Assembly (NCBI GenBank): GCA_963835575.1
Contig: CAWIGG010000004.1
Coordinates: forward strand, 869,672 to 933,671
DNA from: an uncultured Spirochaetota bacterium
GTDB lineage: Bacteria > Spirochaetota > Brevinematia > Brevinematales > JAOACQ01
Length of the DNA stretch: 64,000 nt
Direction of reading: 5' to 3'
The first letter of the stretch is position 1. Each line of letters opens with the position of its first letter. A program made the translations under genes and the position numbers. This document shows positions 13,798 through 47,116 of the stretch, piece after piece. The notes beneath the pieces are model-generated. The model was not told where the DNA came from. It did not search any database and saw only the letters and a program-made list of their open reading frames with translations.

Positions 13798-14381
13798 GAC
13801 CCCAATTCGGCAGGATCAGCAGGATTTGTCAGGATTCTTGGAATAAAATTTCACAGGAAGACGGGAAGGCACGAAGGGAAATTAACGTCACTTTATTTTT
13901 AATTGGAAATGTTCATCATAATTTCTTTGTGGTAATATCCGATGGTGCACACGGATGATGCAGGTAATGTGGATTTGCACGGATCTTGGGATTGGGTACG
14001 ACTGAGGTAACCACAGATTTCACAGATTACATAGACAGGGAGCGAGGAATCGGAGGAAATTGTTTTGGAGTTGCGCACTGTGAACAAGGTATAGCCTCCT
14101 CCTAAAATCCCTATTCACAAATGTCCTATATCATATCCGGCTTCGAATAAAACTTTACAGGCATCGTTAAGTAATACTAAATCCTATAAATCCGCCTTCA
14201 TCCATGCAATCTGTGTGAAATGGGGTCGCTCATTAAGCTTTAATAAAACAAAAAGGACATCTCAATCAAAATCTCTCATCTACCGGGCGTAGCCCCCGAT
14301 TTCAGTCCTTTCCGTGAAATTCTGTGGTAGACTTCGCGTTTTCCTGTATAATTCTAAAAAAAATCCTGATTTATTGGGGTC
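13798..14381. repeat. Gene-less stack of nested inverted repeat modules built from 9/10-bp phased units
   Basis: Forward modules: A GACCCCAATTCGGCAGGAT.. (13798), B ACAGGAAGACGGGAAG (13853), C GTAATATCCGAT..CACACGGAT.. (13932), D AACCACAGATTTCACAGAT (14009). Reverse partners: 14171-14227, 14311-14328 (D'), 14332-14347 (B'), 14361-14381 (A'). Confidence 0.75.
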
Positions 14382-14494
14382 AATACTTAAAAGAATTTTA
14401 AAGGACAGAACTTTTCTTAATTTATTTTTGAATTTAAATTCAATCATTTGTATAATTTATACAATTGATTTATATTTTTATCAGGAATAGTATA

Positions 14495-21813: not shown

Positions 21814-21949
21814 CCACGAGGCACGGAGGATGGGCTACGCCTGACAGATAAAAGCTCTATACTATGAATTCCTTTCTGTTTTATTAAAAATCATGATTCA
21901 ATCCCAATTTCACACAGATTGCACGGATGAGGCGGATTGACGCGGATTA
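21813..21949 (+). repeat. Forward-oriented phased repeat modules at the left boundary of the kinase insert
   Basis: GCCACGAGGCACGGAGG, TGGGCTACGCCTGACAGATAA, and CACACAGAT TGCACGGAT GAGGCGGAT TGACGCGGAT (near-identical to the reverse complement of 14191-14225). Confidence 0.75.
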
Positions 21950-22018
21950 TCTGTAGTAACTTATGTTTTGGCTTTTTCTAAAAAAACACTTTTTCAACAA
22001 TCTCGTAAAGCGGCGAAA

Positions 22019-23545
22019 TTACGCTAAAAGTAGACGTAACCACTTCTCTATTTCAGCATTTTCAAGTTTTTTCGTTTCTACTTCTCGTACATGCATAGCA
22101 ACTCTAGAGAGATTATATTCATTATAGAATTCGTTACTATCCAAAGCGTAATTTTCTTTATGCGGTCCACGAACTAAAGCAGAATCTTTAAATATAGCAA
22201 AATACCATTCTCCATAAATATCATCTTGCTTTTCTTTCCTTAAAATCAAATTCACGGAATATTCGTTCTTTGTACCACTTAAATTCATCACCCCAACCAA
22301 AATTATCAGTTCTTTATCGAAAATTATACCTTCAGGTTCTTGCATAACCATTCCATATTTTTGTTTCTGAAATTCTATAGATCTTCTTCTTCGTTCATCT
22401 TTATAATTAGCAATCCCATTCACATCAAAAAATGATATATCTAATGCTCGTTCCATAAAAGATACTCTTAGACTTTCTAAATTATTTCTTTTCCCATTTT
22501 TTATGATGAATTTTGCATTTTCTAAGTTTTTGTTCACAGACTCAACTAGAGAACATACAGAATTAATCAATTCATTGATAGAATAATTTAAATATCGCAA
22601 CTTCTCCTCATGTTCATCTTGTCTCTTTGAGCTTTTTGCCAATTCCTCTTCTTTTTTTCTAATAAGCTGATGAGCCATACTAGCAATCGACGTAGCTATA
22701 TTCGCGTCTTTTGTATTACTTTTAAGAAAATCGTTAAGACTCTTAAGTATTTCTTCATCATTTTTATATCGCTGGTCCTTTTTTTTATTTGACATCTTTA
22801 TGATTATTTCTTTTAATTTTATAGGAACATCGCTTCTATTTGTACTTAAATCCGGTAACGGTTCAAATAGATGACACTGTCTATAATCTTGTGGTGTTGC
22901 ACAAATATAGGGTTTCTTAAGTGTTAAGATTTCAAAGAACATTATCCCCATTGAATAAATGTCCATTGAAATCGTATTTGCTTCTCCAAGCCATGCTTCA
23001 GGAGACATATAAGCATAAGTCCCTGCACCTTTAAAAGAGAATGTTTTTGTTGATTCATCTACATATTTTGACATTCCAAAATCGCAAACCTTAGCTGTGC
23101 CATCCACATCAATTAATATATTATTCGGCTTCAAGTCTCTATGTATCACTTTTTTATGAGCATATTCCAATCCTTTCAATATATCTGTAAAAATACTATA
23201 GCATTTATCCAAAGGCAACATAACCTTCTGCGTTTTTAGAAATGCATCTAGGCTGCCATTAGGCATATATTTCATTACCAAATAAAAATAATCACCCGCA
23301 TCACTTTCTCCAGAATAGTAAGTACTTATTATATTAGCATGTGCTAGTGTGGCGGATATATCTATTTCTCTTTTTAAGGTTTGTCTATATTGCTCATCAA
23401 AGATAGGGGCAATTTTTATTGCCACTTTCGTTTTATTTATTAAATCATCAGATAGATAGACGTCGCCAAATCCACCTGCATTAATTTTTGTACCAAGCTC
23501 ATACTGTTCACTGCTTTCAGGACCTCGTAATTTATTCATGACCAC
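22019..23545 (-). CDS. Hanks-type Ser/Thr protein kinase with an unknown C-terminal region, AT-rich
   Basis: GGFGDVY, VAIK, HRDLKPNN, DFG, GTYAYMSPE, DIYSMG; no TM segment; visibly lower GC than its flanks. Confidence 0.92.
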   Translation of the reverse strand: MVMNKLRGPESSEQYELGTKINAGGFGDVYLSDDLINKTKVAIKIAPIFDEQYRQTLKREIDISATLAHANIISTYYSGESDAGDYFYLVMKYMPNGSLDAFLKTQKVMLPLDKCYSIFTDILKGLEYAHKKVIHRDLKPNNILIDVDGTAKVCDFGMSKYVDESTKTFSFKGAGTYAYMSPEAWLGEANTISMDIYSMGIMFFEILTLKKPYICATPQDYRQCHLFEPLPDLSTNRSDVPIKLKEIIIKMSNKKKDQRYKNDEEILKSLNDFLKSNTKDANIATSIASMAHQLIRKKEEELAKSSKRQDEHEEKLRYLNYSINELINSVCSLVESVNKNLENAKFIIKNGKRNNLESLRVSFMERALDISFFDVNGIANYKDERRRRSIEFQKQKYGMVMQEPEGIIFDKELIILVGVMNLSGTKNEYSVNLILRKEKQDDIYGEWYFAIFKDSALVRGPHKENYALDSNEFYNEYNLSRVAMHVREVETKKLENAEIEKWLRLLLA

Positions 23546-23624
23546 TTTTACTCCCTCATATGAAATTTGTATTACGTCTTACTTCATATAAGCAAATTTA
23601 ATATATGTGAATTTTCTCCCCTTC

Positions 23625-23653
23625 ATCTTAATAAAGCCCAATTCACCTGTCAA
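23625..23653 (-). promoter_or_regulatory. Shared accessory-gene promoter, copy 1
   Basis: Minus strand TTGACA-ggtgaattgggctttat-TAAGAT-gaa. Confidence 0.7.
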
Positions 23654-23679
23654 GACCGATATCGGGACGCAATAATCTG

Positions 23680-23834
23680 ATCCGTGAAAATCCGCATCAT
23701 CCGCCTAATCCGCGTGCCGAATCGGATCAGTACAATAAGGCGGCAATTATTATAGAATTACAATAGCTTAACAAAGGCATTGAAATGAAATAATTCTCTG
23801 TGCCCCTGTGTCTCGATAGCGAATTCTCTGTGGC
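23680..23834 (-). repeat. Reverse-oriented phased repeat modules at the right boundary of the kinase insert
   Basis: Reverse complement reads ATCCGATTCGG CACGCGGAT TAGGCGGAT GATGCGGAT TTTCACGGAT. Outer module CTCTGTGCCCCTGTGTCTCG..CTCTGTGGC. Confidence 0.75.
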
Positions 23835-32898: not shown

Positions 32899-32910
32899 AG
32901 GAAATAATTA

Positions 32911-33180
32911 ACAGGAAGGCATCCCTTGGCTGTGCTCGGGACAGGCTCCGGCGGGAAGGGAAGAATATAAACGTATCTTCTATTATAATATTTAAACTAA
33001 TGTAAAAGAAGCCTGATTGTAATATCCGATTTTTCACACGGATGACGCGGATTTTAAAGGATTTAGTTTTACGCTGAGCAGCTTTTTTATTGATGATATC
33101 TGATAGAGTCTTATATTAACCACGAAGTTCGCGAAGAACACGAAGAGGGTTGGAAAGGTGGGCTGCGCCCGGTGGATAAG
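32911..33180 (+). repeat. Forward-oriented modules B, C, D-like and F at the left boundary of the defence block
   Basis: ACAGGAAGGC[REP insert]GCGGGAAG; GTAATATCCGAT..CACACGGAT GACGCGGAT TTTAAAGGAT; AACCACGAAG TTCGCGAAG AACACGAAG; TGGGCTGCGCCCGGTGGATAA. B, C and D are in the same order as at 13853-14036. Confidence 0.72.
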
Positions 33181-33224
33181 GCTTTGAGAACGACTGAATA
33201 TCATAGAATGACACTGATGTTCAC

Positions 33225-34934
33225 TTATATCTTAAAATATTTTTTCTCTGCTTTTTTAGCTATTTTTAAAATAGAATCCAACTTTTCACTTACTTCCTTG
33301 TCAATTTCCTCGGGTTTTGCCATACTAACCAATTTGTAATAACGGCTTTTATCCATTAAAATCACAGAATTAATCTTTTTATAAAAATCCCTGAATACTT
33401 TATCGAGAAAATCATCACTCATTTTTGTCGTATTCCACCATTCGTTCATTTTATCTTTTTTTGCCACACCAGGAATATAATCATCGATTATATTTTTAAT
33501 TATTGACGGATAAGTCTGAGTAAATAATTCTTTTCCATATTCTTCAACAATAAAACGCTCAATAACAACCGGCAATGGCAAATAATTTTCTATTTCGTTT
33601 TTATCCCACATTAACATTTTGAAATATTCATTACTCTGAAGTTTAGCCGGAATTTTATCAAATATGGCGATGCCTGATAAATCAGGCATTGCTTCTTTTA
33701 ACCCGTAAAAATGATTTTCGGCTGATGACGGCCGGTTTGAATCAACAGTTCTGACGAATGCTTCTTCAAGGTACTTTAAAACGGGATGTCCTAATAATTT
33801 GGCAAAGGCTTGAAGTATCAAATGATCGGTCGTCCCTTCGAGATAAAGGACCCATTTCTTTTGTTCTGCAAGAACGTACTGATCAAAACCAATACTATTC
33901 AGTGATTTTACGAGCTGCTGAGTCTTATTCACACGGTGGGGATCACCGATAAACCCTATTATTGTATCCTTTTCCGCAGCCTCGTTAAGCACTGCTTCCG
34001 AGTGTGTGGCAATTATTAATTGTGATTTCTGATTCTTAATGGTTTCTGAAAGTGTGTTATAAATCTCTTTTTGCCTGATAACTTCAAGATGGGCATCCGG
34101 TTCATCAAGTAAAAGAATTGTGTTTTCATTGCTGTAAATATAAGAAAATAACAGCAGGATTTGCTGAAAACCCCTTCCGGAGTTGGAAAGAGCCATATTT
34201 TTCTTGGAATCTTCGCGATAAGTCAACAACAGCTTTCCCGTACCGGCATCATAAACCGGATCATCTAAATCAACAAGGAAAAACCTTTTTATGAGACTTT
34301 TTAATTCCTTCCATTTTCCATTACTGCGCTGATAGACATTCCAGCATAGGTTTCTCAGGACTTCCGCGGTCCTTCCCTCGCCGATCCTGCCCTGAATCGA
34401 TCCGGGTTCAAGTTTGTCTTCCTCGCTCGCAAGTCCCGACATTGGAGGAAGAAAACCAACGCGTTCGTTTATAACTTCTTCCGGAAAAGGCAGAGGTTTC
34501 CCATTTTCATCACCCAGTATCCGGCAATAAATAGATTCGGGATTTGCATAATCAAATTCAAAACCCAGAGACCATTTAGTGTTTGAAGTAAAGCCTTCGG
34601 CTGTAATTTTTATCCTGATATTCTCCGTACCTCTTTTACCTTCTTTTTTTATAAAACTTTTTCTGACATTGAGATCGCTCCATAATTGAAGCGCGGAGGG
34701 TAAAGGCATAGAAAGGAGTTCTTTACGGTTTATTGTTATACCTGTTCTCTGCTTCGCTTTGGTTGTACGGGAATGTTCATACCACCTTCTCATCCCGATA
34801 CTCCAGAGAGAAATAGCCTGCAATGCTGTGGTTTTACCGGAATTATTCGGTCCTATAAAAGCGACAACAGGAGTCAGGTCAATTTCAACTTTTTCCAGTT
34901 TTTTAAAATTTTCAATAAAAAGTCTGGTTAACAT
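33225..34934 (-). CDS. ABC/AAA_15-type ATPase with a C-terminal TOPRIM-like region (OLD/GajA-like, putative defence protein)
   Basis: IENFK, GPNNSGKT, SGRGFQQ signature, LLLDEPDAHL, IATHS, then LYLEGTTD...IFD...EIENYL. Confidence 0.75.
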   Translation of the reverse strand: MLTRLFIENFKKLEKVEIDLTPVVAFIGPNNSGKTTALQAISLWSIGMRRWYEHSRTTKAKQRTGITINRKELLSMPLPSALQLWSDLNVRKSFIKKEGKRGTENIRIKITAEGFTSNTKWSLGFEFDYANPESIYCRILGDENGKPLPFPEEVINERVGFLPPMSGLASEEDKLEPGSIQGRIGEGRTAEVLRNLCWNVYQRSNGKWKELKSLIKRFFLVDLDDPVYDAGTGKLLLTYREDSKKNMALSNSGRGFQQILLLFSYIYSNENTILLLDEPDAHLEVIRQKEIYNTLSETIKNQKSQLIIATHSEAVLNEAAEKDTIIGFIGDPHRVNKTQQLVKSLNSIGFDQYVLAEQKKWVLYLEGTTDHLILQAFAKLLGHPVLKYLEEAFVRTVDSNRPSSAENHFYGLKEAMPDLSGIAIFDKIPAKLQSNEYFKMLMWDKNEIENYLPLPVVIERFIVEEYGKELFTQTYPSIIKNIIDDYIPGVAKKDKMNEWWNTTKMSDDFLDKVFRDFYKKINSVILMDKSRYYKLVSMAKPEEIDKEVSEKLDSILKIAKKAEKKYFKI

Positions 34935-35010
34935 AAATTGCCCCTTGGATTTTTTGATTAAGATTTATTTTAACATAAATCTTATTATTTGTCTTTTCAA
35001 ATTCTAATGT

Positions 35011-38000
35011 TTATTCCATTATCTCATCTATTTTCCCCATCACCCGTTCAGTCTCCACAAGAGCGGCAATTATCCGCTGGTAGTGTAAGATTTCGTCAAA
35101 TGTTAAAGTGCGCCCTTTCCTGTCCTTCAGCCACTTCTGCGCGGGCTGGTAGCCGCCGATGTAGAACTCCCAGCTGATTCGGGAACTCCTCCGAAGAATT
35201 GCTTTTTATTGATCCATACTTTGCCATAATTTTTAACCTTAGATTTTACCTGTTCTTTCTCAAAAATCACTTTTTCCACTTCATTATTCCCCGTTTCGGG
35301 ATAAGCGGTAATTAAATTTTCAAGCAGCGGAGATTCCATCAGATGTAATTTCCTCAATACGGCCCCTTTTTCCGCAAGTTTAAAAAATATTTTAGCGCTT
35401 TCAGGATACGGTATTCGCGGAAAGTCTATTTTTAAGAATTCCTTATATTTTTCCCGGTAGGAAGGCGAATGGAGTACGGCATAAATATAGTCGAGAATGT
35501 CCAGCGGGGTAAAGTATTTCTTCGCTCCTTTAGTTTTTTGAATAGAATCATTGTCATCTTCTTCCTTGAATTCCAGCCCAATTTTCCCGGCGATAGCATT
35601 CACGATTTCCATGTTTAGGTTAGGACGGCGATGTTCCGAAAAGCGACGATTCGAATCGTCGCTTTTCGCTTCGAAATCAAATTCCCCATCGTCGTCGTAG
35701 AGGTAGAGAGGAAATATTTTACAATTATCAAATGGCGAAACGCCATCCTTATCAACAATTTTATTTGAAATGAAATAATTAGTAACATTACCTCTTCTTG
35801 AATTTCTAATTGCTAATAGACATATATTTTCTTTTAACATATTATTCATTAATGGGCTTCGTGGATAGGCCATAAAACCCTTACTTTTTCCAGTAAAATA
35901 AGTATACCTATCATCAAAAGGATGGTATAGTACATTATTTTCGACCCCATTATTATTCTTTATATCATCCATAGCCCATTTAATAGACCAATCTCTTCCA
36001 TCTTCACCCAAATTATACTTATATCTTATCTCCTCTGTTGACAATTGTTTTAAATCAATAATAATTTTTAATAATTCTTCCTTAGAAAAAGAATAAACTA
36101 GATTATCCCTTTTAGTTTGTATTCCAGTATTATTTGAAATAAATATTGATTCAATATTAAGTCCTTTATTATATTCTTCATCCAATCTAAAATCTTTTGG
36201 TACAAAAAAACAATACGGTTCAACAGGGTCAAGCTTCAACCATTTCAAAGATAAAATATTACTATTCCAGAGTTTATCATACTTAACCTCCCGTTCACCA
36301 AATACATCAAAATGAAAAACAGAAGATAATTCTTTTTTCTTTCCACCATTCTTTACAAAAATATTGATTGATACCCCTTGCTGGATATCGAAAACATTTT
36401 CATCCTTGCTTCCATCCGGTGAAGTTTCTTTTTTCTTTGAATTTCCATGGAGATCATAAATATAAATTTTATCGAAAGTTTCCATCAGGTGCTTGCGCAT
36501 CTGCCGGTGTGTAATGCCGTCGATATAGGAATTGTTTGTGATCATTGCCACAATACCCTGGCCGTTTTTCTCGATAAAATGCTCGGCATAGCGGATAAAT
36601 TTTATATAATCGTCGTCAAGATTCAGTTTCTTCTCATTCAATCCTTCCTTATAGCACTTTATCTGGGAACGTATCCAATCGCCGGTATTGCTGGAACTGA
36701 CGCTGTACGGAGGATTGCCGACCACGACCATGACGGGCATATCCTCCTTGACCTTATTCGCTTCCTTCGCCTCAAAGGAAAGCCACTGCGCGAAAGTGGT
36801 GTTGATTGTGGCTCCCGGCTTTTCCAGGCTGTTGGTCAGGTAAATTCCCAGGCGGGGGGATCGGTCGGTAAAAGTGTAGCCGGTTTCCTGGAAAATGAAT
36901 TCCATCTTGAGGTGGCACATCGCGTAGCTTGCCATCAGGATTTCGAAGCCATGCAGGCGGGGAAGAAGATGCTCGTCCACATAGCCGTTCCAGACGCCTT
37001 TCTGGGATTCGAAGCTTTTATAAATCCGCCTGATAATTTCAGCGAGGAAAGTCCCTGTGCCGGCAGCCGGGTCTAAAATCTGCACCCGGTGGGATTCAAT
37101 CTTAAATAATCCCCCCGCGATGTTTTCATGTTCCACCTCGACTTTTGAAGTATCAGCCAAGCCCATCTTAAGGCCGAATTCGGATTTCAGAATATCGTCC
37201 ACGGCGCGTACAATAAAACTCACAACAGGTTCGGGGGTATAATAAACCCCGCGCGATTTCCGCTGGGCGGGATCGTACTCGGCAAGGAATGTCTCATAAA
37301 AATGGATTACCGGGTCATGACGGGCGGTCGCGTCTCCAAAGTCTGCCATAATCTTATTCAAGTCACACGCGAGGAATAGATCGGCCAGCGCGTCTACAAT
37401 CCAGTCGATGCTGTTGTCCAGTTCGGGTCCGGCCACATAAGAGAAAAAATTCCTGAGAAATAGATTGGATTTCGGAACGAGGAATAAGGCTTCCTGACGG
37501 GAAAAAGTTTCCATTGTTTTATCATGAATCCTCGCGGCGAATAGGCCGTATGCTACCGTCTGAGAGTAAATATCGGCAAATTGATGTTCGGTCATATCAT
37601 GAATCAGTACTCTCTTAAATGACTGGTACTGGCTGTAAAGGGTATTGGACGAATCACCGGAGTGATCCGGTTTTTGAAGCGTTAACGCATTATAAATAAT
37701 ATCACGCATCAATCGCGCCTTGTCTGCCATCATCCGGGCGAGCTTTTCCGCGGATGTAATAGTCTGGCCCCTGTAATCACAGAAATCTCGGATCATATCC
37801 TCAAAAACAGGCCAGTCTTTTTCACAGGGTTTAAGTTTGCCGCCTTCGATTTCAGCGATTCGAGCCGTCATTTCTTTTTGCCCTGCGCGGAAAAGCCGGA
37901 ATTCCAGGTAATCTGTCAGGATAAGATTGTCAAGGCTTTCAAGGTATTTTTTAAGCTGATCGTCTTTCTCACTTTTATCAAGCGAAATACCAATATCTTT

Positions 38001-38207
38001 TGTTTCAACATAACCGACTGGTATTTCTTTCCGGGTGATAATCAAATCTGGCGCGCCGCATTCCTGGCGTCTGGGTTCATTTGTTACTTTTATTTCAGGT
38101 ATAATGCTTTCAATCAGCCCTTCAAGATCGGAACAATAACTGTGCTCGGTAGCAATTCCATCATTAAAAAGCCTTTTTATATTTGAAAAATAATCAGCTA
38201 TCGTCAT
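35011..38207 (-). CDS. Single-chain restriction-modification enzyme (type IIG/ISP-like without helicase; N6-adenine MTase), 1-nt frameshift near 35171
   Basis: N-terminal PDLII..VETKD nuclease motif, GVYYTPEPVV, DPAAGTGTF, GNPPY, IYAVLHSPSYR. The conserved tail WEFYIGGYQPAQKWLKDRKGR continues in another frame to a stop at 35011. Confidence 0.85.
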
Positions 38208-38407
38208 AATATACCTCAAATAATTATAATTACAAATTAATATATTATAACAAATTAAAGATTTAAATCAAAACTTTCATTTGTATTTTTATTTCTTTAT
38301 AACCATTGCACTCCGTTTTCTTCTCTGAAAGTCCGGGAAAGCCTTTTGATTTTTCCTGATGCTCACTTTGCTGAAGCCAACGGAGCGGCCAGCCAGTTCT
38401 CCGTTCT

Positions 38408-38571
38408 TCCGTTCCCGAGGCCATTTTCCTCCTGGCCATAATCTGAACATAAATCAACTCAATTTAAAGTCGTGTTATCTGTTAACATTATAATAGAAGA
38501 GAGGCAAATGTTTTTGACATAGCCTGCCCCCGATCCAATCGAGAGGATGTCAAAACCGATGCATAAAGCCA
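38408..38571. repeat. Spacer module X, copy 1
   Basis: TCCGTTCCCGAGGCCATTTTCCTC(C/T)TGGCCATAATCTGAACAT (42 of 43 identical), ATTATAATAGAAGAGAGG and GCATAAAGCCA all recur in the same order at 39818-39957. Confidence 0.8.
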
Positions 38572-38628
38572 TCGGCACATAAAGGAATTTTGTTTATTAT
38601 TTTTTTCTCATCATCGTTCCCCGGCGGG

Positions 38629-38948
38629 GGCAGAGAGTGAACTTTTCTGGATGCGTCACTTCATTAATTATGGAATTGTAATACAGAGCATCGCGCAGAG
38701 GGCTTAGTTTTGCCCGTGACCGGCCGGCTTGAACGCGCGGAATGTCCGAGCATACCCATTGTCCATAAATTCGAAATCAAGACAGACTAATAAAGAATAT
38801 TTGATAAATTACTTTCAATGGGTGTGCGAGTTCCGAGCGTGCGGCCGGGAGCGGATGCAAAACTAGCACTCGAAGCGAATGCGTTCTTTAGTCTGAAATT
38901 ATGAGAAAATGATTAAATATCAGCGTCCAGAAAAGTTCACTATCTACC
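38629..38948. mobile_element. MITE-like ~320-bp foldback element
   Basis: Terminal IR AGAGAGTGAACTTTTCTGGATGC / GCGTCCAGAAAAGTTCACTATCT. Internal nested pairs: TAGTTTTGC/GCAAAACTA, CCGGCCG/CGGCCGG, ACGCGCGGAA/TTCCGAGCGT, GCATACCCATTG/CAATGGGTGTGC. Confidence 0.6.
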
Positions 38949-39010
38949 TTTGCCTATCGCTGGGGGACAATCTGCAGTGTGGCACAGCGCCAGCAGTGCC
39001 TCCTTTTCCC

Positions 39011-39118
39011 TTCTTTTCGAAAAGAAAGAAATATCGTAATTCCCCCGGCAGCCTGTCGGAATAATAATCCCCAATAGCTTAATAAAAAGAAAAGACGTTG
39101 ACCCTTCAGCCAGAAGGC
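39011..39118. repeat. Spacer module Y, copy 1
   Basis: TTCTTTTCGAAAAGAAAGAAATATCGTAATTCCCCCGGCAG...AAAAAGAAAAGACGTTGA recurs at 40138-40243, with a degenerate copy at 44542-44619. Confidence 0.8.
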
Positions 39119-39208
39119 GATGCCCTTTTGACCTTGCAAAAGAAAGTGAACAAAATCCCCCGGCAATCGTTGCCGGTCTGCGCAGCCGCATTGCACCTTT
39201 TTATTATC

Positions 39209-39424
39209 TTAAATATTATCTTTAAACTCGGATAGAGTGATATTGGCCTGTCTGAGAATACTGCGGAAAGTACCTTCAGGAATTTCTTTCTTATCCATCG
39301 GTAATATGACAATGTTCCCTTTTCCATTCTTATATTTTGCGTGGGAACCTTTTTGAGAAATAAAAGAAAATCCCAATCTTTCCAGGACTGATGAGATTAC
39401 TCTTGATGAGTAAAGCTTAGACAT
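39209..39424 (-). CDS. hicA: HicA-family toxin
   Basis: 71 aa; LERLGF..QKGSH..Y, EIPEGTFRSILRQA. Confidence 0.88.
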   Translation of the reverse strand: MSKLYSSRVISSVLERLGFSFISQKGSHAKYKNGKGNIVILPMDKKEIPEGTFRSILRQANITLSEFKDNI

Positions 39425-39623
39425 GGACCTTTTCCCTTCCGATGAAAACCTGGTCTACTTCAGGGAATTCCTTATCCTCATTTTCAAAATAAAGTTCAAC
39501 AGCCTCTTTAAGATTAGTAACAGCCTCGTCTGAATTATTTCCAAAAGAGGAAACATCCACATTCAAACACTGTGAAACATAATATTGGCCTTCATGCCAG
39601 ACAACATATTCGATTTCTTTCAT
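39417..39623 (-). CDS. hicB: Short HicB-family antitoxin without a DNA-binding domain
   Basis: YVSQCLNVDVSSFGNNSDEAVTNLKEAVELYFE; overlaps the hicA start. Confidence 0.85.
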   Translation of the reverse strand: MKEIEYVVWHEGQYYVSQCLNVDVSSFGNNSDEAVTNLKEAVELYFENEDKEFPEVDQVFIGREKVHV

Positions 39624-39817
39624 AATAGAGCCTCTCTTTAAAAAAAGAATAAAGGTAATTAAGCGTAAAATCAAGTTTTAAAGTATTCGTTTATTTTTGT
39701 ATAACAGACAGGAATGTCTGTTATACCGGATTAACCGGCGCCAATTCCCATCTTTAAAAAGAATGTTTTATCATAAATAAAATGAATAAGAATTAAAAAA
39801 AGCTGTTCGGCAAATTG

Positions 39818-39957
39818 TCCGTTCCCGAGGCCATTTTCCTCTTGGCCATAATCTGAACATCAAATATCTCGATATAAAGTTGTGGCATCCGCTATTATAA
39901 TAGAAGAGAGGAAGCACATGCTTGCGGCAGGGACGCCGCAACCGCCGCATAAAGCCA
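39818..39957. repeat. Spacer module X, copy 2
   Basis: Direct repeat of 38408-38571. Confidence 0.8.
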
Positions 39958-40127
39958 CGCCCAGCACCACTTTGATTGCCTGTCCTCAAAGTGGTGCTGG
40001 GCAAGGATAGCGATTTAAGGCGGCTATTATAGCAATGAACTGCTTATTAAAAAGCCGGATAACACACCTCCATACGGTCCGATAGCTTCGTATGAAAATG
40101 GCCTCGACCTGTTTTCTTTCTTTAGCG

Positions 40128-40243
40128 CGATATTTCTTTCTTTTCGAAAAGAAAGAAATATCGTAATTCCCCCGGCAGTCTGTCGGACTAATAATCTCCA
40201 ATAGTTTAGTAAAAAGAAAAGACGTTGATCCTTAACCAGAGGC
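40128..40243. repeat. Spacer module Y, copy 2, beginning with a 36-bp perfect palindrome
   Basis: CGATATTTCTTTCTTTTC|GAAAAGAAAGAAATATCG (40128-40163), then a direct repeat of module Y. Confidence 0.85.
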
Positions 40244-40283
40244 TATACATCTATTGGCCTAGTAAAAGTTAGTAAAAATGGCA

Positions 40284-41402
40284 TTACGCTAGTAAAAGCT
40301 TGATAGGCAGCGCCCCGTTCAACAACGCGATTTCTTTGTTTGCTTTAAGCGAAAGCAAATGGACCGGCGCATCCGCCGGAACGAGCAGCGCGATGCGCCA
40401 CGCCGAGAACCGCTCATGGATGACCCTGCCTATGTCTTTGAACAATGCGCTGATTCCGCTGCCCCCGATGCGTTCGCCGTAGGGCAGATTGGCGATCAGG
40501 AGACCGCCCGGCGCGGGAGGCGTCCACTCCTGGAAAGGCTTTACTGAAAATGCGATATACTTTTCAACACGGGCGCGCAGCGCGGAGGCGCGAGCCACGT
40601 CGACATACTTGGCGTTGATGTCCGAAGCATAGATCGGCGCCGGCAGTTCGGACTTTTTAGCCGCGCGCAATTGATCGGAAACGCGGCGCCACAAAGGGCG
40701 GTCGAAACCGGCCAGGTGCTCCAGGGCAAAATCGTCTTTGCCCCGGTGAATGAGCGGCGCTTTATTCAGAGCGATATATGCCGCTTCGATGATAATGGTG
40801 CCGGAGCCGCACATCGGATCAAGGAGCGGTTCATTGCCGGTGTAGCCTGCCAGAAGCAGGATCGAAGCGGCCAGTGTCTCTTTCAAAACGGCCGGATGCC
40901 CGCCTGTACGCCAGCCGCGTTTATGAAGGGCGCGGCCCGCCGTGTCGATGCCGAGCGTGCAGGAACCGTTCCGGACGAATACAACGATGGTAATGGGCTC
41001 GTCGGCGTCGGGATCGAACCGGGGAGCGGACTTTTCAAACGCGCTATTTTGTATCGATTGAACGATGGATGTAATAACCGCTTCCTCGCCCAACGCAATA
41101 GCTTGTTGATCGGTGAGGGCCGGCGCGACCGTGAAAGGCTTATGCGAGCGCAGCCATTCCGGCCAGACGATCTTCTGCAGTTCCATCCTCAGATGTGTTA
41201 TGTCAGGAGTGGCGAATTCCGCGACCACGCGCTGAATTCTGCTTGCTGTACGCAGTAACAAATGGGCGCGGTACGCGGTCTCCAGATCAGTGTCGAACGC
41301 TACGCCGCGGTGCAGTATATTCAGGTCTTTTATTCCAAGCCCGGCAAGTTCGGAAGCGAGCACATCGACAGTCTCGTGCGGGCATGTGGCAATCCATCTC
41401 AT
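40284..41402 (-). CDS. THUMP-domain class I SAM RNA methyltransferase (RlmL-like), copy 1
   Basis: LRTASRI, DTAGRALHKRGWR, LKETLAA, LLDPMCGSGTIIIEAA, NLPYGERI. Confidence 0.88.
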   Translation of the reverse strand: MRWIATCPHETVDVLASELAGLGIKDLNILHRGVAFDTDLETAYRAHLLLRTASRIQRVVAEFATPDITHLRMELQKIVWPEWLRSHKPFTVAPALTDQQAIALGEEAVITSIVQSIQNSAFEKSAPRFDPDADEPITIVVFVRNGSCTLGIDTAGRALHKRGWRTGGHPAVLKETLAASILLLAGYTGNEPLLDPMCGSGTIIIEAAYIALNKAPLIHRGKDDFALEHLAGFDRPLWRRVSDQLRAAKKSELPAPIYASDINAKYVDVARASALRARVEKYIAFSVKPFQEWTPPAPGGLLIANLPYGERIGGSGISALFKDIGRVIHERFSAWRIALLVPADAPVHLLSLKANKEIALLNGALPIKLLLA

Positions 41403-41535
41403 AAAGTTTGAGACCTCAACCGATTAGATTTTGACAGGTCCGGCGATAGAGCGAAATTATGTTTAACGTCCTCGATAAGCGAAGCTGCCGAAGTTTTTAC
41501 TAAAGCCGAGGTAAGTGAACAACTTTGTGACTCTA

Positions 41536-41811
41536 TTACACTATCTCAATTTTTACTTTTTTTCCTAATGCCTTTGCGATACGTTCCAGGGATGATAATT
41601 TTAAATCTTCGGCATGGTTTTCCATTCTTGATATGGCGCTTTTTGTCGTGTGAATCCTGCCAGCTAAATCTTCCTGGGTTAATCCGTTTTTGATCCTCAT
41701 TTCTTTCAACATCAATCCGATTTTAAAATCATTGTAATTTTCATCATAGTTTTCAGCGAAAGAAGGATCGGATTTTTTCCTTTTATCGACGTATTTTTTT
41801 AAATCACTCAT
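41536..41811 (-). CDS. XRE-family HTH antitoxin (HigA-like)
   Basis: RIKNGLTQEDLAGRIHTTKSAISRMEN; overlaps the toxin stop. Confidence 0.85.
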   Translation of the reverse strand: MSDLKKYVDKRKKSDPSFAENYDENYNDFKIGLMLKEMRIKNGLTQEDLAGRIHTTKSAISRMENHAEDLKLSSLERIAKALGKKVKIEIV

Positions 41812-42158
41812 ATATTCCTCCGTAAATAATCGGCTTTGTATTTTTCAGCCAGTTTGATTTCATTTTCAGGTGTTTTTTGGGTCTTTTTGGTAAAACCATT
41901 AGTTAATATAAACAGTGCGTTTTTATGAAAGAATCCTAATAATCTGTAAGTATCACTTCCCTGTTGAATCCTGACTTCGTAGATATTGTCAGTATTCACT
42001 AATTTTTTAAAATAGTTTTGCGGAATTTGATCAAAGTCTTCAATAATCTGCAATACCCATGTAATTTTCCGGGCTGTTTTTCCCGGTAAAGAATCAAGAT
42101 ATTCTTCAACCGGACATTTTCCATCCTCGGTTTTATAAAAGTTAATGACTCTTTTCAT
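41808..42158 (-). CDS. RelE/ParE (HigB, Gp49-like) toxin
   Basis: FYKTEDGKCPVEEYL, IYEVRI, YRLLGF, LTNGFTKKTQKTPENEI. Confidence 0.85.
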   Translation of the reverse strand: MKRVINFYKTEDGKCPVEEYLDSLPGKTARKITWVLQIIEDFDQIPQNYFKKLVNTDNIYEVRIQQGSDTYRLLGFFHKNALFILTNGFTKKTQKTPENEIKLAEKYKADYLRRNI

Positions 42159-42162
42159 ATTA

Positions 42163-42192
42163 TATGTTAGCATACATGTGAACATTAGTCAA
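42163..42192 (-). promoter_or_regulatory. Toxin-antitoxin promoter with overlapping palindromic operator
   Basis: Minus strand TTGACT-N17-TAACAT, 5 nt before the ATG; imperfect palindrome ATGTT-ca-CATGTATG-ct-AACAT. Confidence 0.6.
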
Positions 42193-42283
42193 TAGCATTT
42201 ATAGCAATCTTGTATCAGGTTATCGTTTAACTAGCGACATTAATGAGTTATTGTTTTATGGGTTTTAAGATTGACCAAAAGAT

Positions 42284-42440
42284 AATCCTGTAAATCCTGT
42301 GTTATCCTATAAATCCTGCCGAATTGGGGTCAGTATAATTAAGATATTCTAATTTTCAATTTCCGGCAGGATATGAAGAAATCATCTGATCTGTGCGAAT
42401 CCGCATAATCTGTGTCATCCGCGTGCAGAATCGGATATTA
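42284..42440 (-). repeat. Reverse-oriented modules A' and C'
   Basis: The reverse complement of 42313-42331 is GACCCCAATTCGGCAGGAT, identical to 13798-13816. The reverse complement of 42388-42440 is TAATATCCGATTCTG CACGCGGAT GACACAGAT TATGCGGAT TCGCACAGAT. Confidence 0.8.
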
Positions 42441-42467
42441 TATAAAAGAGGTGTTAATAATAATCTA

Positions 42468-43586
42468 TTATGAAACCAGCAGCTTTACCGGTAATGCCCC
42501 GTTCAACAACGCGATTTCTTTGTTTGCTTTAAGCGAAAGCAAATGGACCGGCGCATCCGCCGGAACGAGCAGCGCGATGCGCCACGCCGAGAACCGCTCA
42601 TGGATGACCCTGCCTATGTCTTTGAACAATGCGCTGATTCCGCCGCCCCCGATGCGTTCGCCGTAGGGCAGATTGGCGATCAAGAGACCGCCCGGCGCGG
42701 GAGGCGACCACTCCTGGAAAGGCTTTACTGAAAATGAAATATACTTTTCAACACGGGCGCGCAGTGCGGAGGCGCGAGCCACGTCGACATATTTGGCGTT
42801 GATGTCCGAGGCATAGATCGGCGCCGGCAGGGCGGACCTTTTAGCCGCGCGTAATTGATCGGAAACGCGGCGCCACAAAGGGCGGTCGAAACCGGCCAGG
42901 TGTTCCAGGGCAAAATCGTCTTTGCCGCGGTGAATGAGCGGCGCTTTATTGAGCGCGATATACGCCGCTTCGATGATAATGGTGCCGGAGCCGCACATCG
43001 GATCAAGGAGCGGTTCATTGCCGGTGTAGCCTGCCAGAAGCAGGATCGAAGCGGCCAGTGTCTCTTTCAAAACGGCCGGATGCCCGCCTGTACGCCAGCC
43101 GCGTTTATGAAGGGCGCGGCCCGCCGTGTCGATGCCGAGCGTGCAGGAACCGTTCCGGACGAATACAACGATGGTAATGGGCTCGTCGGCGTCGGGATCG
43201 AACCGGGGAGCAGACTTTTCAAACGCGCTACTCAATATCGATTGAACGACGGATGTAATGACCGCTTCCTCGCCCAACGCAAGAGCCAGTTGATCGGTGA
43301 GGGCCGGCGCGACGGTGAAAGGCTTGTGCGGCCTCAGCCACTCCGGCCAGACGATCTTCTGCAGTTCCATCCTCAGATGTGTTATGTCAGGAGTGGCGAA
43401 TTCCGCGACTACACGCTGAATTCTGCTTGCTGTACGCAGTAACAAATGGGCGCGGTACGCGGTTTCCAGATCAGTGTCGAACGCTACGCCGCGGTGCAGT
43501 ATATTCAGGTCTTTTATTCCAAGCCCGGCAAGTTCGGAAGCGAGCACATCGACAGTTTCGTGCGGGCATGTGGCAATCCATTTCAT
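42468..43586 (-). CDS. THUMP-domain class I SAM RNA methyltransferase (RlmL-like), copy 2
   Basis: Same motifs as copy 1; about 15 of 372 residues differ by manual comparison. Confidence 0.88.
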   Translation of the reverse strand: MKWIATCPHETVDVLASELAGLGIKDLNILHRGVAFDTDLETAYRAHLLLRTASRIQRVVAEFATPDITHLRMELQKIVWPEWLRPHKPFTVAPALTDQLALALGEEAVITSVVQSILSSAFEKSAPRFDPDADEPITIVVFVRNGSCTLGIDTAGRALHKRGWRTGGHPAVLKETLAASILLLAGYTGNEPLLDPMCGSGTIIIEAAYIALNKAPLIHRGKDDFALEHLAGFDRPLWRRVSDQLRAAKRSALPAPIYASDINAKYVDVARASALRARVEKYISFSVKPFQEWSPPAPGGLLIANLPYGERIGGGGISALFKDIGRVIHERFSAWRIALLVPADAPVHLLSLKANKEIALLNGALPVKLLVS

Positions 43587-43682
43587 AAAGTCCGGTACCT
43601 CAACCAATAAAATTTTGAGGTCCGGCCTAACGAAGCAGGTCGGACCCGAAGAAAAGAGCCGCCGTTAGCGGCAGTACTGTCT

Positions 43683-44318
43683 CTATTTTAAAGAATTATA
43701 TATGTCATCCAGTTCTTTAAAATTATACTTGTCAATGAATAATGATTTGTATTCGTTATAGTATTTATTCGCTTCTGCTATATTTCCAATTTTCTTTAAT
43801 AAAAAAGAATATGCAAGTTTATGTTGAATGTAATTATGAAAACCAAATCGAATGAATTTTCTATTGATTTTTTCTAAAAATAAAATATCTAAATCTTTTA
43901 AATGATGTATTCTTGAATAAAATGATTCACTTTCATTTATTATAATAGAAATAATATCTTTTGTTCTTTTAATTAAATCTTTTTCACTTTTATATTCAAA
44001 TAATGAAATTGTGCACTCTTTCGGTTCTTTATAATCTAATTGATCAATGTAAAAATCGTTTATATCTGCAGACTTTATTGTTTTATGCCATTTAAGCTTA
44101 CCGTTGAAACTGGGGCAAAAATTTAATGAAACTCCCCAAAGAAAAGCTTTTGACATACTTTTTAGAGAGTATGCCGTAATACCTTTCATAAATTCATTAT
44201 TATCTTCTTTAATCCACTTATAATCTTTGGTATGAATATATCCAAGTTTTAATAAATCTTGTGTTATGGTGTTATTTATAATTTCATTAAAAACATCTGT
44301 TTTATCATGATAACCCAT
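43683..44318 (-). CDS. Hypothetical AT-rich protein (possibly DUF4304-like)
   Basis: 211-aa ORF with a GGGGAG RBS and its own promoter; the family call rests only on LLKLGY..WIKE-type similarity. Confidence 0.6.
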   Translation of the reverse strand: MGYHDKTDVFNEIINNTITQDLLKLGYIHTKDYKWIKEDNNEFMKGITAYSLKSMSKAFLWGVSLNFCPSFNGKLKWHKTIKSADINDFYIDQLDYKEPKECTISLFEYKSEKDLIKRTKDIISIIINESESFYSRIHHLKDLDILFLEKINRKFIRFGFHNYIQHKLAYSFLLKKIGNIAEANKYYNEYKSLFIDKYNFKELDDIYNSLK

Positions 44319-44396
44319 AAATTTCTCCCCGGAATTGCAAGCCGGCTTATTATAAACGAATTTTATTTTATAATATTTTTGGAATTCATTCCATTC

Positions 44397-44425
44397 ATCT
44401 TAATAAAGCAATATTTTACTGTCAA
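44397..44425 (-). promoter_or_regulatory. Shared accessory-gene promoter, copy 2
   Basis: Minus strand TTGACA-gtaaaatattgctttat-TAAGAT-gaatggaat. Confidence 0.7.
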
Positions 44426-44615
44426 CACAAGGATTTCTTCTTTCTTTTAATTAAAAAGAATAAAATAATTATTTGTATTCGTTTAAAGTCTTCAAAATGA
44501 CCGTATGCCTATTCAGAGTCCAAATTTATTTTATGTGTTGTGTGCCGTTTTTCCCTATCTTTTCTAAAAAGAAAGAAAGGGCTCTTCCCCGGATAATCTG
44601 CCGGGCAAAAAATCC

Positions 44616-45080
44616 TCAAAAATTATATGCCAGATGGAATTCCAAACCATCTTTTTGCGGTATTAAAAAAAGTCTCATGTTTTGTTTTTTTTGATTATTA
44701 TTATACTCTAAAACCGCCGCTCCGCCCCATATCATGCTTGCTATGCTGAAACCTAATGAACCGAAAACGCCGATATAGCCGAATGGCGATATTTTCGGGT
44801 CAGGGGATGTGGAAGATAAATCCCTGATAATTTCAATCCAGGTGCAGACAGTGCAGATAGAGCCTCCGGTATTTAATATCCAGAAACCGGCATAATCTTC
44901 GGCGTATATATTTCCCCATCCGAATGTTCCCGGAATCAGAATACCTAGAGTGCTGACATAACCCAGAACAACTCCTTCTATCACGCTTTTTTGTCTGACT
45001 GGCGCCTGATCATTGGTCCCGCAAAAAACTAAAGAACTGTAAAAAACTAAAACAGTAAGTATTACAATGCTTCTTTTCAT
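44616..45080 (-). CDS. Hypothetical exported or membrane protein
   Basis: Signal-like N-terminus, Gly-rich hydrophobic segments, C-terminal LEFHLAYNF. Confidence 0.65.
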   Translation of the reverse strand: MKRSIVILTVLVFYSSLVFCGTNDQAPVRQKSVIEGVVLGYVSTLGILIPGTFGWGNIYAEDYAGFWILNTGGSICTVCTWIEIIRDLSSTSPDPKISPFGYIGVFGSLGFSIASMIWGGAAVLEYNNNQKKQNMRLFLIPQKDGLEFHLAYNF

Positions 45081-45172
45081 ATAATCCCCTGTGCAATCAT
45101 TTATAATATTCTCTAATATTCGTCTTTTTTAAAATAATTGAATGATTATTTTTAATAAAATTTATTCCATTC

Positions 45173-45201
45173 ATCTTAATAAAATCATATTTTACTGTCA
45201 A
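45173..45201 (-). promoter_or_regulatory. Shared accessory-gene promoter, copy 3
   Basis: Minus strand TTGACA-gtaaaatatgattttat-TAAGAT-gaatggaat. Confidence 0.7.
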
Positions 45202-45295
45202 GACAGGTTTTTTTTACATTTTGGACGGGCACAAGAAAGTGGACATAATCCCCGGCAATTGTTGCCTCCGGACAAAAGAAAGTGAACAAGTATCC

Positions 45296-47116
45296 TTATT
45301 TATCCCTTGTTTTATTCATAACCGCTCTTTTCTCCTGATTCAGTTCTATCTTTCTCATCCGGAATGTCTTTGGGGTCACTTCCACCAGTTCGTCTTCCGC
45401 TATGAATTCGATGGCCTGGTCGAGAGATAAAATCCTGGGCACTTTCAATACGATTGTCATATCGGATGTGGAGCTGCGCATGTTGGTCAGTTTTTTTTCC
45501 TTGGTGATATTGATGTCGAGGTCGCGGTCCTTGTTGCTCTCGCCGACGATCATCCCCTCGTAAACCTCTGTTCCGACATTAAGGAACAGTTCGCCGCGGT
45601 CCTCCATGGCAAGGTGCGCGTAGGAATGCGAAAACCCGGACCTGTCGGCGACAAGGACCCCGCTCGTCCTGTGCCTGAAATTTCCCGCCCATTCCTTATA
45701 ACCTTCGAAAAGCGTGTTCATGACGCCGAGGCCGCGGGTGTCCGTCAGGAACTGGCTCCTGAACCCGATGATCCCCCTTGTCGAACAGACAAATTCCAGA
45801 TTGACCCTTCCCGCCCCGGTGTGTTTTATGGTTTCCATCCGGCCTTTTTTTTGTGCCATTTTCTCGGTAATGACGCCGACATATTCCTCGGGAATATCGA
45901 AGAATATTCTTTCATATGGTTCATGGATTTTCCCATCGATTTTCTTTGTGATGATGGTCGGCTTGGATACCATCAGCTCATAGCCTTCCCTCCTCATCGT
46001 CTCGATAAGTATCCCGAGCTGGAGCTCTCCCCTGCCGGAAACCTTGAAGGCGTCCGCCCTGTCGGTATCCTCGACCCGGATGGAGACATTCTTGAGCGAC
46101 TCTTTCTGAAGCCTTGCCTTGATATGCCTTGTTGTCAGGTATTCCCCGTCCCTTCCGGCGAAAGGGCTCGAATTGACATAAAAAACCATGGACACCGTCG
46201 GCTCGTCCACCCGGATGCCCGGGAGAGGTTTCGGGTTTTCAATTGAGGTGATGGTGTCGCCGATATTGATATTTTCAACGCCGGAAACGGCTATGATATC
46301 GCCCGCCTCGACCTCATTCACCTGCTTTTTAGAGAGGCCATGGAAAGTAAAAAGATTTGAGAATTTTATATTGTTCGTGATAACATTATCGCTTACCAGG
46401 GCGTACGGCTTTGAGAGTTCGAGCTTTCCATTGAACATCCTTCCAAGCGCCACCTGCCCGATATAAGAATCGTAATCGAGGTTTGTGACCAGGAATTGCG
46501 GTTCGAGGCTGTCGTCGCCTTCGGGGGCCGGGATATAATTAATAATTTCTTCGAATAGGAATTTAAGGTCTGTCGAACCGTCCCACGGTTTTTTATAAGC
46601 GACGCCTTCCCTGGCCACCGTATAAAGGATCGGGAAGTTAATCTGCCGGTCATCGGCGCCCAGTTCGATAAAGAGGTCGTAAACCTCGTTGATGACCTCG
46701 TCGATCCTGGCGTCCTTCCTGTCGATCTTGTTAATGACAAGTATGACTACTATTTTCTTCGCTAGGGCTTTTCTCAGCACAAATCGGGTCTGCGGAAGCG
46801 GGCCCTCGCTCGCGTCGACAAGGAGAAGCGCCCCGTCGACCATATTGAGGCCTCTTTCCACCTCGCCCCCGAAGTCGGCATGGCCGGGCGTATCGATGAT
46901 GTTGATCTTGATATTCTTATAATAAACGGCCGTATTTTTCGCGGCGATGGTGATGCCTCTTTCCCTTTCCAGGTCCATGGTGTCCATAACGCGTTCCACG
47001 ACTTCCTGGCCTTCCCTGAAAACGCCGCTCTGCCGGAGCATGGCGTCCACCAGGGTGGTTTTGCCATGGTCCACGTGGGCGATGATGGCGATATTGCGGA
47101 ATTTTTCTTTTCTCAC
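45296..47116 (-). CDS. typA: Translational GTPase TypA/BipA
   Basis: [65 protein letters not shown]. Confidence 0.97.

Follow-up and report, generated by a model that had tools for sequence, protein, structure and literature searches.

A defence and toxin-antitoxin gene cluster between two inward-facing copies of a dispersed repeat in an uncultured Spirochaetota bacterium

In the Neisserial intergenic mosaic elements and minimal mobile elements, mosaics of short repeats fill spacers and islets free of mobility genes stand between conserved genes; exchange through transformation and flanking homology has been documented for them. Here we describe a locus of similar make-up in an uncultured Spirochaetota bacterium (GenBank assembly GCA_963835575.1): a 9.4-kb cluster of defence and toxin-antitoxin genes, called the block below, that lies between two inward-facing copies (arms) of a dispersed repeat that we named RepC. 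The whole stretch analysed, referred to as the window, is 64 kb long (C4:869672-933671, C4 being contig CAWIGG010000004.1) and belongs to a 4.39-Mb genome in 7 contigs with a GC content (given as a fraction) of about 0.42.

In the integron mobilization unit (IMU; NFM2-MITE), as set out in PMC3184786, identical copies of a MITE (miniature inverted-repeat transposable element) with target duplications flank genes that have no transposase. The block is similar insofar as two non-coding copies of one repeat family, one at each end, enclose genes without a transposase, but its arms share 85% identity over 34 nt and each has relatives nearer than its partner, unlike those identical copies with target duplications. 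RepC also resembles REP (repetitive extragenic palindromic) sequences, their REPIN doublets and the associated tyrosine transposases (RAYT) in being high-copy, intergenic, mostly located past gene 3' ends and commonly arranged as inverted doublets; it differs in that an arm is an array of words and not a hairpin (folding z near 0), no arm-flanked Y1-transposase gene was found, and the doublets can hold kilobases of cargo. By gene content the block counts as a defence island, since at least two recognised systems are predicted side by side, and it is an ordinary one: an OLD/AriA-like ATPase-TOPRIM protein, a Type IIG restriction-modification (R-M) enzyme, HicAB and a Gp49-helix-turn-helix (HTH) pair adjoin on one strand and are patchy in relatives. 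It departs from such islands in having no integrase, tRNA or prophage context and a lineage-specific repeat at its edges. Integron cassette arrays differ from it as well, since the RepC arms are inverted pairs with no recombinase nearby, a comparison made without running an attC model. A literature search on MITE-flanked defence hotspots and PF05635 returned nothing on point, supplements aside.

Genome-wide, RepC arms follow ordinary genes and face AT-rich accessory DNA. Seventy-two of the 100 intergenic copies lie downstream of the 3' end of a co-oriented gene, and GC is 0.377 in the 1 kb in front of an arm compared with 0.455 in the 1 kb behind it (Wilcoxon, 9.5e-11), being lower in front than behind in 81 of the 105 arms. 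When adjacent copies are close they mostly face each other: at gaps below 1 kb there are nine (+,-) pairs and no (-,+) pair and at 1-5 kb nine and three, giving 18 versus three for all neighbours less than 5 kb apart, while at 5-20 kb the counts are seven and 17. By these counts RepC copies alternate along the contigs and pair into convergent brackets. Interior GC averages 0.338 in the 18 (+,-) brackets of 0.6-20 kb, compared with 0.453 in the 20 (-,+) gaps (p 2.5e-7), and none of 2000 random length-matched sets was equally low; convergent genes flank 12 of 20 brackets. Because (+,-) brackets recur in this way, the bracket around the block is one case of a genome-wide pattern, and our initial reading of the inverted pair as a mere by-product of gene orientation was dropped after the neighbour statistics.

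The brackets range in size from cargo-free doublets of about 250 nt to brackets with several kilobases of cargo. Cargo-free doublets have loops of 46-51 nt with a shared loop sequence; at 13800-14400 of the window, between plus-strand genes, stands a cargo-free nested palindrome consisting of an A arm, a B module, a C arm and reverse C-type and A-type arms, an order unlike that at the right edge of the block. The cargo of other brackets includes two PD-T4-6/mad6-like Ser/Thr kinases; one of them, of 508 aa and with strong PD-T4-6/mad6 matches in PADLOC, is encoded on the minus strand of the window (22019-23545) as the only gene of the bracket at 21909-23740 (GC 0.32). Bracket C4:548447-553082 contains a SocA/Panacea-domain protein, a 146-aa open reading frame (ORF) and another Type IIG enzyme that shares 39% identity with that of the block. 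Elsewhere the cargo comprises an HTH-ImmA/IrrE protein with DUF4411, a PIN protein with an unknown partner, a DUF2971/PDC-S31 protein, insertion sequence (IS) elements (IS256, IS21 and others) and several ORFs without matches, wedged between housekeeping genes. The 9.2-kb bracket C4:508545-517839, with a cyclase of weak PycC likeness, a 604-aa unknown protein, IS21 and a double-HTH protein, is the sole one whose arms are mutual closest relatives (ranks 1 and 3). Only IS elements and R-M enzymes recur among brackets as cargo families. A histidine-kinase orthologue test at another bracket was dropped, the matches being merely 35-37% identical.

A RepC copy consists, in this order, of a T-rich lead-in, a core (TAATATCCGAT, with variants CTGATCCGAT and ACCCCAATT), three to four words (CACGGAT, CGCGGAT or CACAGAT) spaced every 9-10 nt and often GGATTTAGTTTT plus further modules; a GGGGATTAACG module often lies about 55 nt upstream. 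The 11-nt core has 55 exact copies in the genome, and a profile built from the 43 of these with at least two downstream words found 105 copies, of which 6 are in the window and 43 in the 1.07 Mb of contig C4. A search for the exact core-plus-CAC pattern gave 56 matches here and none in 12 relatives, and the profile found no match in 90 other loci totalling 1 Mb. Of 301 genomes of the phylum, 42 have the looser pattern of triple CGGAT arrays (a reversed-pattern control was near zero); it was not found in the four same-genus genomes. Two genomes of another spirochaete genus provide a side observation: one (G206, contig C5) has an MNT-HEPN pair beside a CACGGAT doublet and a 196-aa Y1_Tnp gene about 600 nt from the doublet, and the other (G214, contig C27) has the doublet without the pair.

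An earlier note on this DNA had described forward and reverse modules at the edges of the block. Modules B, C and D turned out to be parts of the one composite repeat RepC and are not private to the block, as they belong to a family of 105 copies. Reading the sequence confirmed the note's module C at 33019-33030, GTAATATCCGAT, and its reverse complement ending at 42440; the inverted pair extends over 34 nt at 85% identity (33020-33053 and 42407-42440). The left arm begins 108 nt past the stop of the co-oriented ehr gene upstream and the right arm 17 nt past the stop of methylase copy 2. The order B, C, D is repeated at 13853-14036, as had been stated, and the statement that B, D and F lack a reverse partner fails for D, the right arm carrying D-type words. 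The "A prime" module is a second, variant arm oriented like the right C arm and has five further copies in the genome by blastn; variant cores like its own occur in other arms, and module A has two matches in the window, at 13800 (+) and 42313 (-), compared with 0.01 expected. The 11-mer core has three matches in the window, a number reached by 50 of 100 shuffles with one mismatch allowed and so not significant. Module F matches C4:508084-508050 at 97% and C2:1017279-1017245 at 94%, and blastn found further genomic copies of the spacer stretches 32952-33179 and 33111-33145. The core of the earlier description, cargo of defence and toxin-antitoxin type between forward and reverse module copies, is thus supported, and the arrangement recurs genome-wide.

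The further idea that the block moves as one excisable unit, or that the modules are its own termini, was not supported. Exchange between two inverted arms would turn the block around without removing it. As relatives of each other the block arms rank 57th and 71st of 104, and the median over all brackets, 45, is about that expected by chance. GC within the block varies from 0.28 to 0.60, and the block includes dispersed repeats and a duplicate of the gene at its flank. No target-site duplication was seen on reading the arm edges, whose outer limit is ill-defined, and blastn found no second copy of the block cargo in the genome save the repeats and the methylase copy. Pfam detected no recombinase or transposase domain in the ORFs of 33225-45080, so no tyrosine or serine recombinase marks an edge, and all 23 PF00589 (tyrosine recombinase) matches of the genome lie away from the block. 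Insertion at a tRNA with direct att repeats finds no counterpart either: a scan of the window found no tRNA or tmRNA, and the edge repeats are inverted. A joint of 33054 with 42335 in the sequencing runs (opposite strands of one contig, side 31, likeness <95) is not taken as a sign of rearrangement, as a repeat copy in which C is followed by A would produce it.

Given that no recombinase, tRNA, target duplication or matched arms were found and that the block is mosaic, stepwise filling fits best. We give a probability of about 0.5 to the reading that a mosaic islet of defence and toxin-antitoxin genes grew step by step in a repeat-marked spacer between convergent gene sets. On this reading the spacer between the ehr operon (plus strand) and the genes from methylase copy 2 through typA (minus strand) would be filled in steps. 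RepC would first spread as a cargo-free inverted doublet, MITE- or REPIN-like, into 3' spacers; the centre of such a doublet may then become a favoured landing place for incoming DNA, and each insertion would drive the two arms further apart. The arms would accordingly mark a hotspot and not the block's own ends, and the present block would not be a mobile unit. Signs of such assembly are the range of GC, the repeat copies on either side of hicBA and the 96% methylase duplicate. The size of the RepC family, its polarity, the pairing of its arms, the AT-rich interiors and the cargo of other brackets and the cargo-free doublets also speak for this reading, as does the patchy ATPase, whose two examined relatives have neither an R-M gene nor word arrays beside them.

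Several observations weigh against stepwise filling. The interior GC of the block, 0.414, is the highest among brackets below 10 kb, and inward RepC arms stand on both sides of just 6 of 281 AT-rich segments and on one side of 19. Scored with crude borders, 278 AT-rich segments were flanked by inverted repeats (122) no more often than by direct ones (126). Six long (+,-) CGGAT-array pairs from four further genomes enclose mostly housekeeping genes, so the bracket pattern did not generalise, and the counts of gene orientation use crude greedy ORF calls (about 3650 ORFs). Finally, a strain without the block was found neither in the relatives nor in the metagenome contigs or sequencing runs examined, so that insertion, order of events and breakpoints are all inferred. 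Among genomes of the genus or family, five have the ehr large-subunit gene at 60-73% and typA at 78-83% identity, with no neighbours in common with the window on either side. A metagenome search with the ehr protein yielded 80 loci and no close strain, the best (75%) ending 294 nt after the gene. One sequencing run gave exact small contigs at a depth of 2-3, among them fragments of the R-M gene and repeat copy A (Table 1), and another contained a relative about 90% alike over pieces of ehr, methylase and typA; no contig from the runs bridged either block edge.

The arms might instead be an integrase-less cassette system, in which some protein reads the phased words and captures or carries defence and toxin-antitoxin genes between inverted arms at many sites. 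We consider this unlikely; if true, no larger "filled" unit than the block would be known of what would be a novel type of gene-capture element.

It is also doubtful that RepC arms form the inverted termini of non-autonomous transposable units that carry cargo and are mobilised in trans by a transposase from another locus, much as in MITE-flanked units of the IMU kind, the block or parts of it having arrived in this way. A terminal core followed by three to four subterminal words in helical phase, inverted at both ends, is the layout of a transposon end; (+,-) pairs prevail at short range, the cargo is diverse and AT-rich, the arms of C4:508545-517839 rank 1st and 3rd as mutual relatives, and MITE pairs flanking cargo are described in PMC3184786. 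The block itself does not follow suit: its arms rank 57th and 71st of 104 relative to each other, with a median of 45 over all brackets, no duplication was seen at their edges, and no segment of its cargo recurs in the genome save the repeats and the methylase copy. Relatives of the block ATPase in two other genomes (G008 and G022) have no arrays nearby, and no candidate transposase tied to the RepC family was identified in the genome. Three families were considered and rejected in this connection. The three PF01797 (RAYT) matches of the genome are weak or atypical and none is beside a RepC arm; the single PF05635 (GxxExxY) gene is flanked by a different repeat, of 14 nt; and of the roughly 35 IS256 copies just three are inside brackets. 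These roughly 35 IS256-family transposase genes (416 aa) are near-identical, and several lie at contig ends.

Quite unlikely, in our estimate, is that the arms are boundary elements kept by the host, phased protein-binding arrays that insulate core genes from the transcription or silencing of AT-rich foreign DNA, so that the bracket layout would reflect function and not a history of insertion. The strong polarity between core side and AT-rich side and the preference for sites just past gene 3' ends agree with this, the word spacing of 9-10 nt would put the sites on one face of the helix, and four RepC arms folded no better than shuffles (z -0.26 to 0.18), which makes them more likely to be read as duplex DNA than as RNA hairpins. 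Together with the lack of any terminator-like site in or beside the arms, the same folding result led us to reject arms that act as terminators or RNA hairpins. That lack also speaks against a boundary function, however; most AT-rich segments have no arms, the binding protein is hypothetical, and RepC was not found in four same-genus genomes, for which a recent selfish expansion is a better fit than a conserved host function. A coincidence, two common intergenic repeats 9.3 kb apart whose opposite orientation follows from the convergent gene pair, accords with the 3'-end rule that both block arms obey (as 72 of 100 copies do), with a density on C4 that makes neighbours about 10 kb apart common and with arms that are not specially alike, but is improbable, as only about 3% of genes have RepC behind them (105 copies versus about 3650 ORFs) and the 18 accessory segments with arms on both sides, with a GC contrast found in 0 of 2000 random sets, show that the bracket pattern is not chance.

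The genes of the block bear out the labels of the earlier note (ATPase-TOPRIM, R-M, hicBA, methylase and toxin-HTH pair, all on the minus strand) by Pfam, PADLOC and NCBIfam. The ATPase matches AriA (1.4e-25) and AriAB (1e-21) in PADLOC, through AriA/GajA/Old-type profiles. Its C-terminal 240 residues gave no Pfam match even at E 1, neither to TOPRIM nor to DUF4435. A structure model computed from 36 homologues (pLDDT 86.4) has the OLD nuclease 6p74 as its top fold match in the PDB (498 alignment columns, E 2e-14) and aligns with GajA chains over 640-670 columns, and the neighbours of the protein in a language model bear DUF4435 (score 0.94) or an OLD-like TOPRIM. Within a beta-alpha pattern at 361-442, residues E366 and D426 do not vary across the family alignment; the consensus is without the second Asp of the TOPRIM DxD motif. 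On the strength of the fold match, the PADLOC AriAB match and the language-model neighbours we keep the ATPase-TOPRIM label, for a modelled OLD-like chain with an N-terminal ATP-binding cassette (ABC) ATPase and a C-terminal TOPRIM domain; membership in PARIS and in class-1 OLD are both compatible with it. The family has at least 8000 homologues, with a best match at 75%, and occurs in 11 of 401 phylum genomes and none of four same-genus genomes.

The Type IIG enzyme has the Pfam domains Type_ISP_C, N6_Mtase, Eco57I and MmeI_Mtase, and profile PDLC03610 matches it in two stretches, the best being residues 7-515; as far as domain matches tell, nuclease, N6-adenine methylase and specificity domain would be joined in one chain, as the class has it. 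That the ATPase and the R-M enzyme form a single system was rejected, as the ATPases of G008 and G022 have no R-M neighbour and the bracket with the second R-M enzyme has no ATPase. The hicB-like gene has a weak Pfam match (HicB_lk_antitox, E 0.066). Two direct copies of a repeat of about 420-530 nt, found at about 40 genomic places and without an Rfam match, flank hicBA.

For the methylase the label "THUMP" stands in part: the RlmL/UPF0020 type is confirmed, and as no Pfam THUMP match is among those listed, the name depends on the match to the N-terminal part of RlmL (NCBIfam, RlmK/L N-terminal half, 5.5e-72). The two intact copies, one inside the bracket and one immediately outside, are 96% identical in DNA over 1133 nt (40312-41444 and 42496-43626) and in direct orientation; the 2184 nt that separate them contain the Gp49-HTH pair and two repeat arms. 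The homology begins about 13 nt short of the 3' end, within the gene, and extends to some 43 nt upstream of the start. Their codon differences, 26 synonymous versus 15 non-synonymous, indicate that both are retained as working genes. The GC of the methylase, about 0.53-0.60 compared with 0.42 for the genome, its presence in just two of five relatives and the existence of 55-81% identical proteins in metagenome-assembled genomes of Bdellovibrionota, Gammaproteobacteria and Myxococcota suggest that the gene was acquired horizontally and later duplicated or re-acquired.

The complex-I/Ehr-like operon on the plus strand terminates at 32898, and from 33225 to 47116 every gene is on the minus strand, in the order ABC ATPase, Type IIG enzyme, hicA/hicB-like pair, methylase copy 1, HTH_3 and Gp49, followed by methylase copy 2, two AT-rich ORFs without a family match and typA (Table 1). 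An Rfam search of 30-48 kb gave zero family matches. The two AT-rich ORFs (43683-45289; 211 and 154 aa) lie between methylase copy 2 and typA, and that of 154 aa is bordered by 57-nt direct repeats (44383-44439 and 45159-45215) also present elsewhere in the genome, so that the variable region may extend to the typA stop.

Table 1. Positions of genes and repeats at the block and its edges, in window coordinates.
Feature	Position	Strand	Basis and remarks
Spacer	32899..33224		ehr/complex-I-like stop to ATPase stop, 326 nt; nearly all dispersed modules
Left RepC arm	33006..33082	+	nhmmer E 3.9e-13; TAATATCCGAT core, CACGGAT/CGCGGAT words, then GGATTTAGTTTT; faces block interior
Module F	33111..33145	+	three CACGAAG-type words, separate word family; blastn against the genome
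ABC-type ATPase with TOPRIM-like C-terminal half (OLD/AriA-AriB-like, single gene)	33225..34934	-	569 aa; Pfam AAA_15, AAA_21
Type IIG restriction-modification enzyme	35127..38219	-	1030 aa; PADLOC REase_MTase_IIG, E 9.4e-296
Dispersed repeat copy A, about 420-530 nt	38389..39104		blastn against the genome; split by nested second repeat 38587-38988
hicA and hicB-like toxin-antitoxin pair	39209-39424 and 39417-39674	-	overlapping genes; Pfam HicA_toxin 2.3e-16
Dispersed repeat copy B, direct orientation to copy A	39701..40231		perfect 36-nt palindrome 40128-40163
RlmL/Trm14-type (UPF0020) methyltransferase copy 1, within bracket	40284..41402	-	Pfam UPF0020, RlmL_1st
HTH_3 antitoxin and Gp49 (HigB/RelE-like) toxin	41536-41811 and 41808-42185	-	Pfam HTH_3 1.1e-11, Gp49 1.5e-20
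"A prime" module, variant arm	42284..42331	-	ACCCCAATT core, CAGGAT words; on the inner side of the right RepC arm
Right RepC arm	42377..42451	-	nhmmer E 4.7e-15; faces block interior
Methyltransferase copy 2, immediately outside bracket	42468..43607	-	Pfam; DNA alignment with copy 1

The distinctive part of this locus is its repeat, a family of word arrays aimed into AT-rich accessory DNA that brackets defence-type genes at more than 12 sites. Should the arms turn out to be landing sites or ends for incoming genes, they would reveal how small recombinase-free defence modules enter chromosomes, and they would flag such islets in spirochaete relatives.

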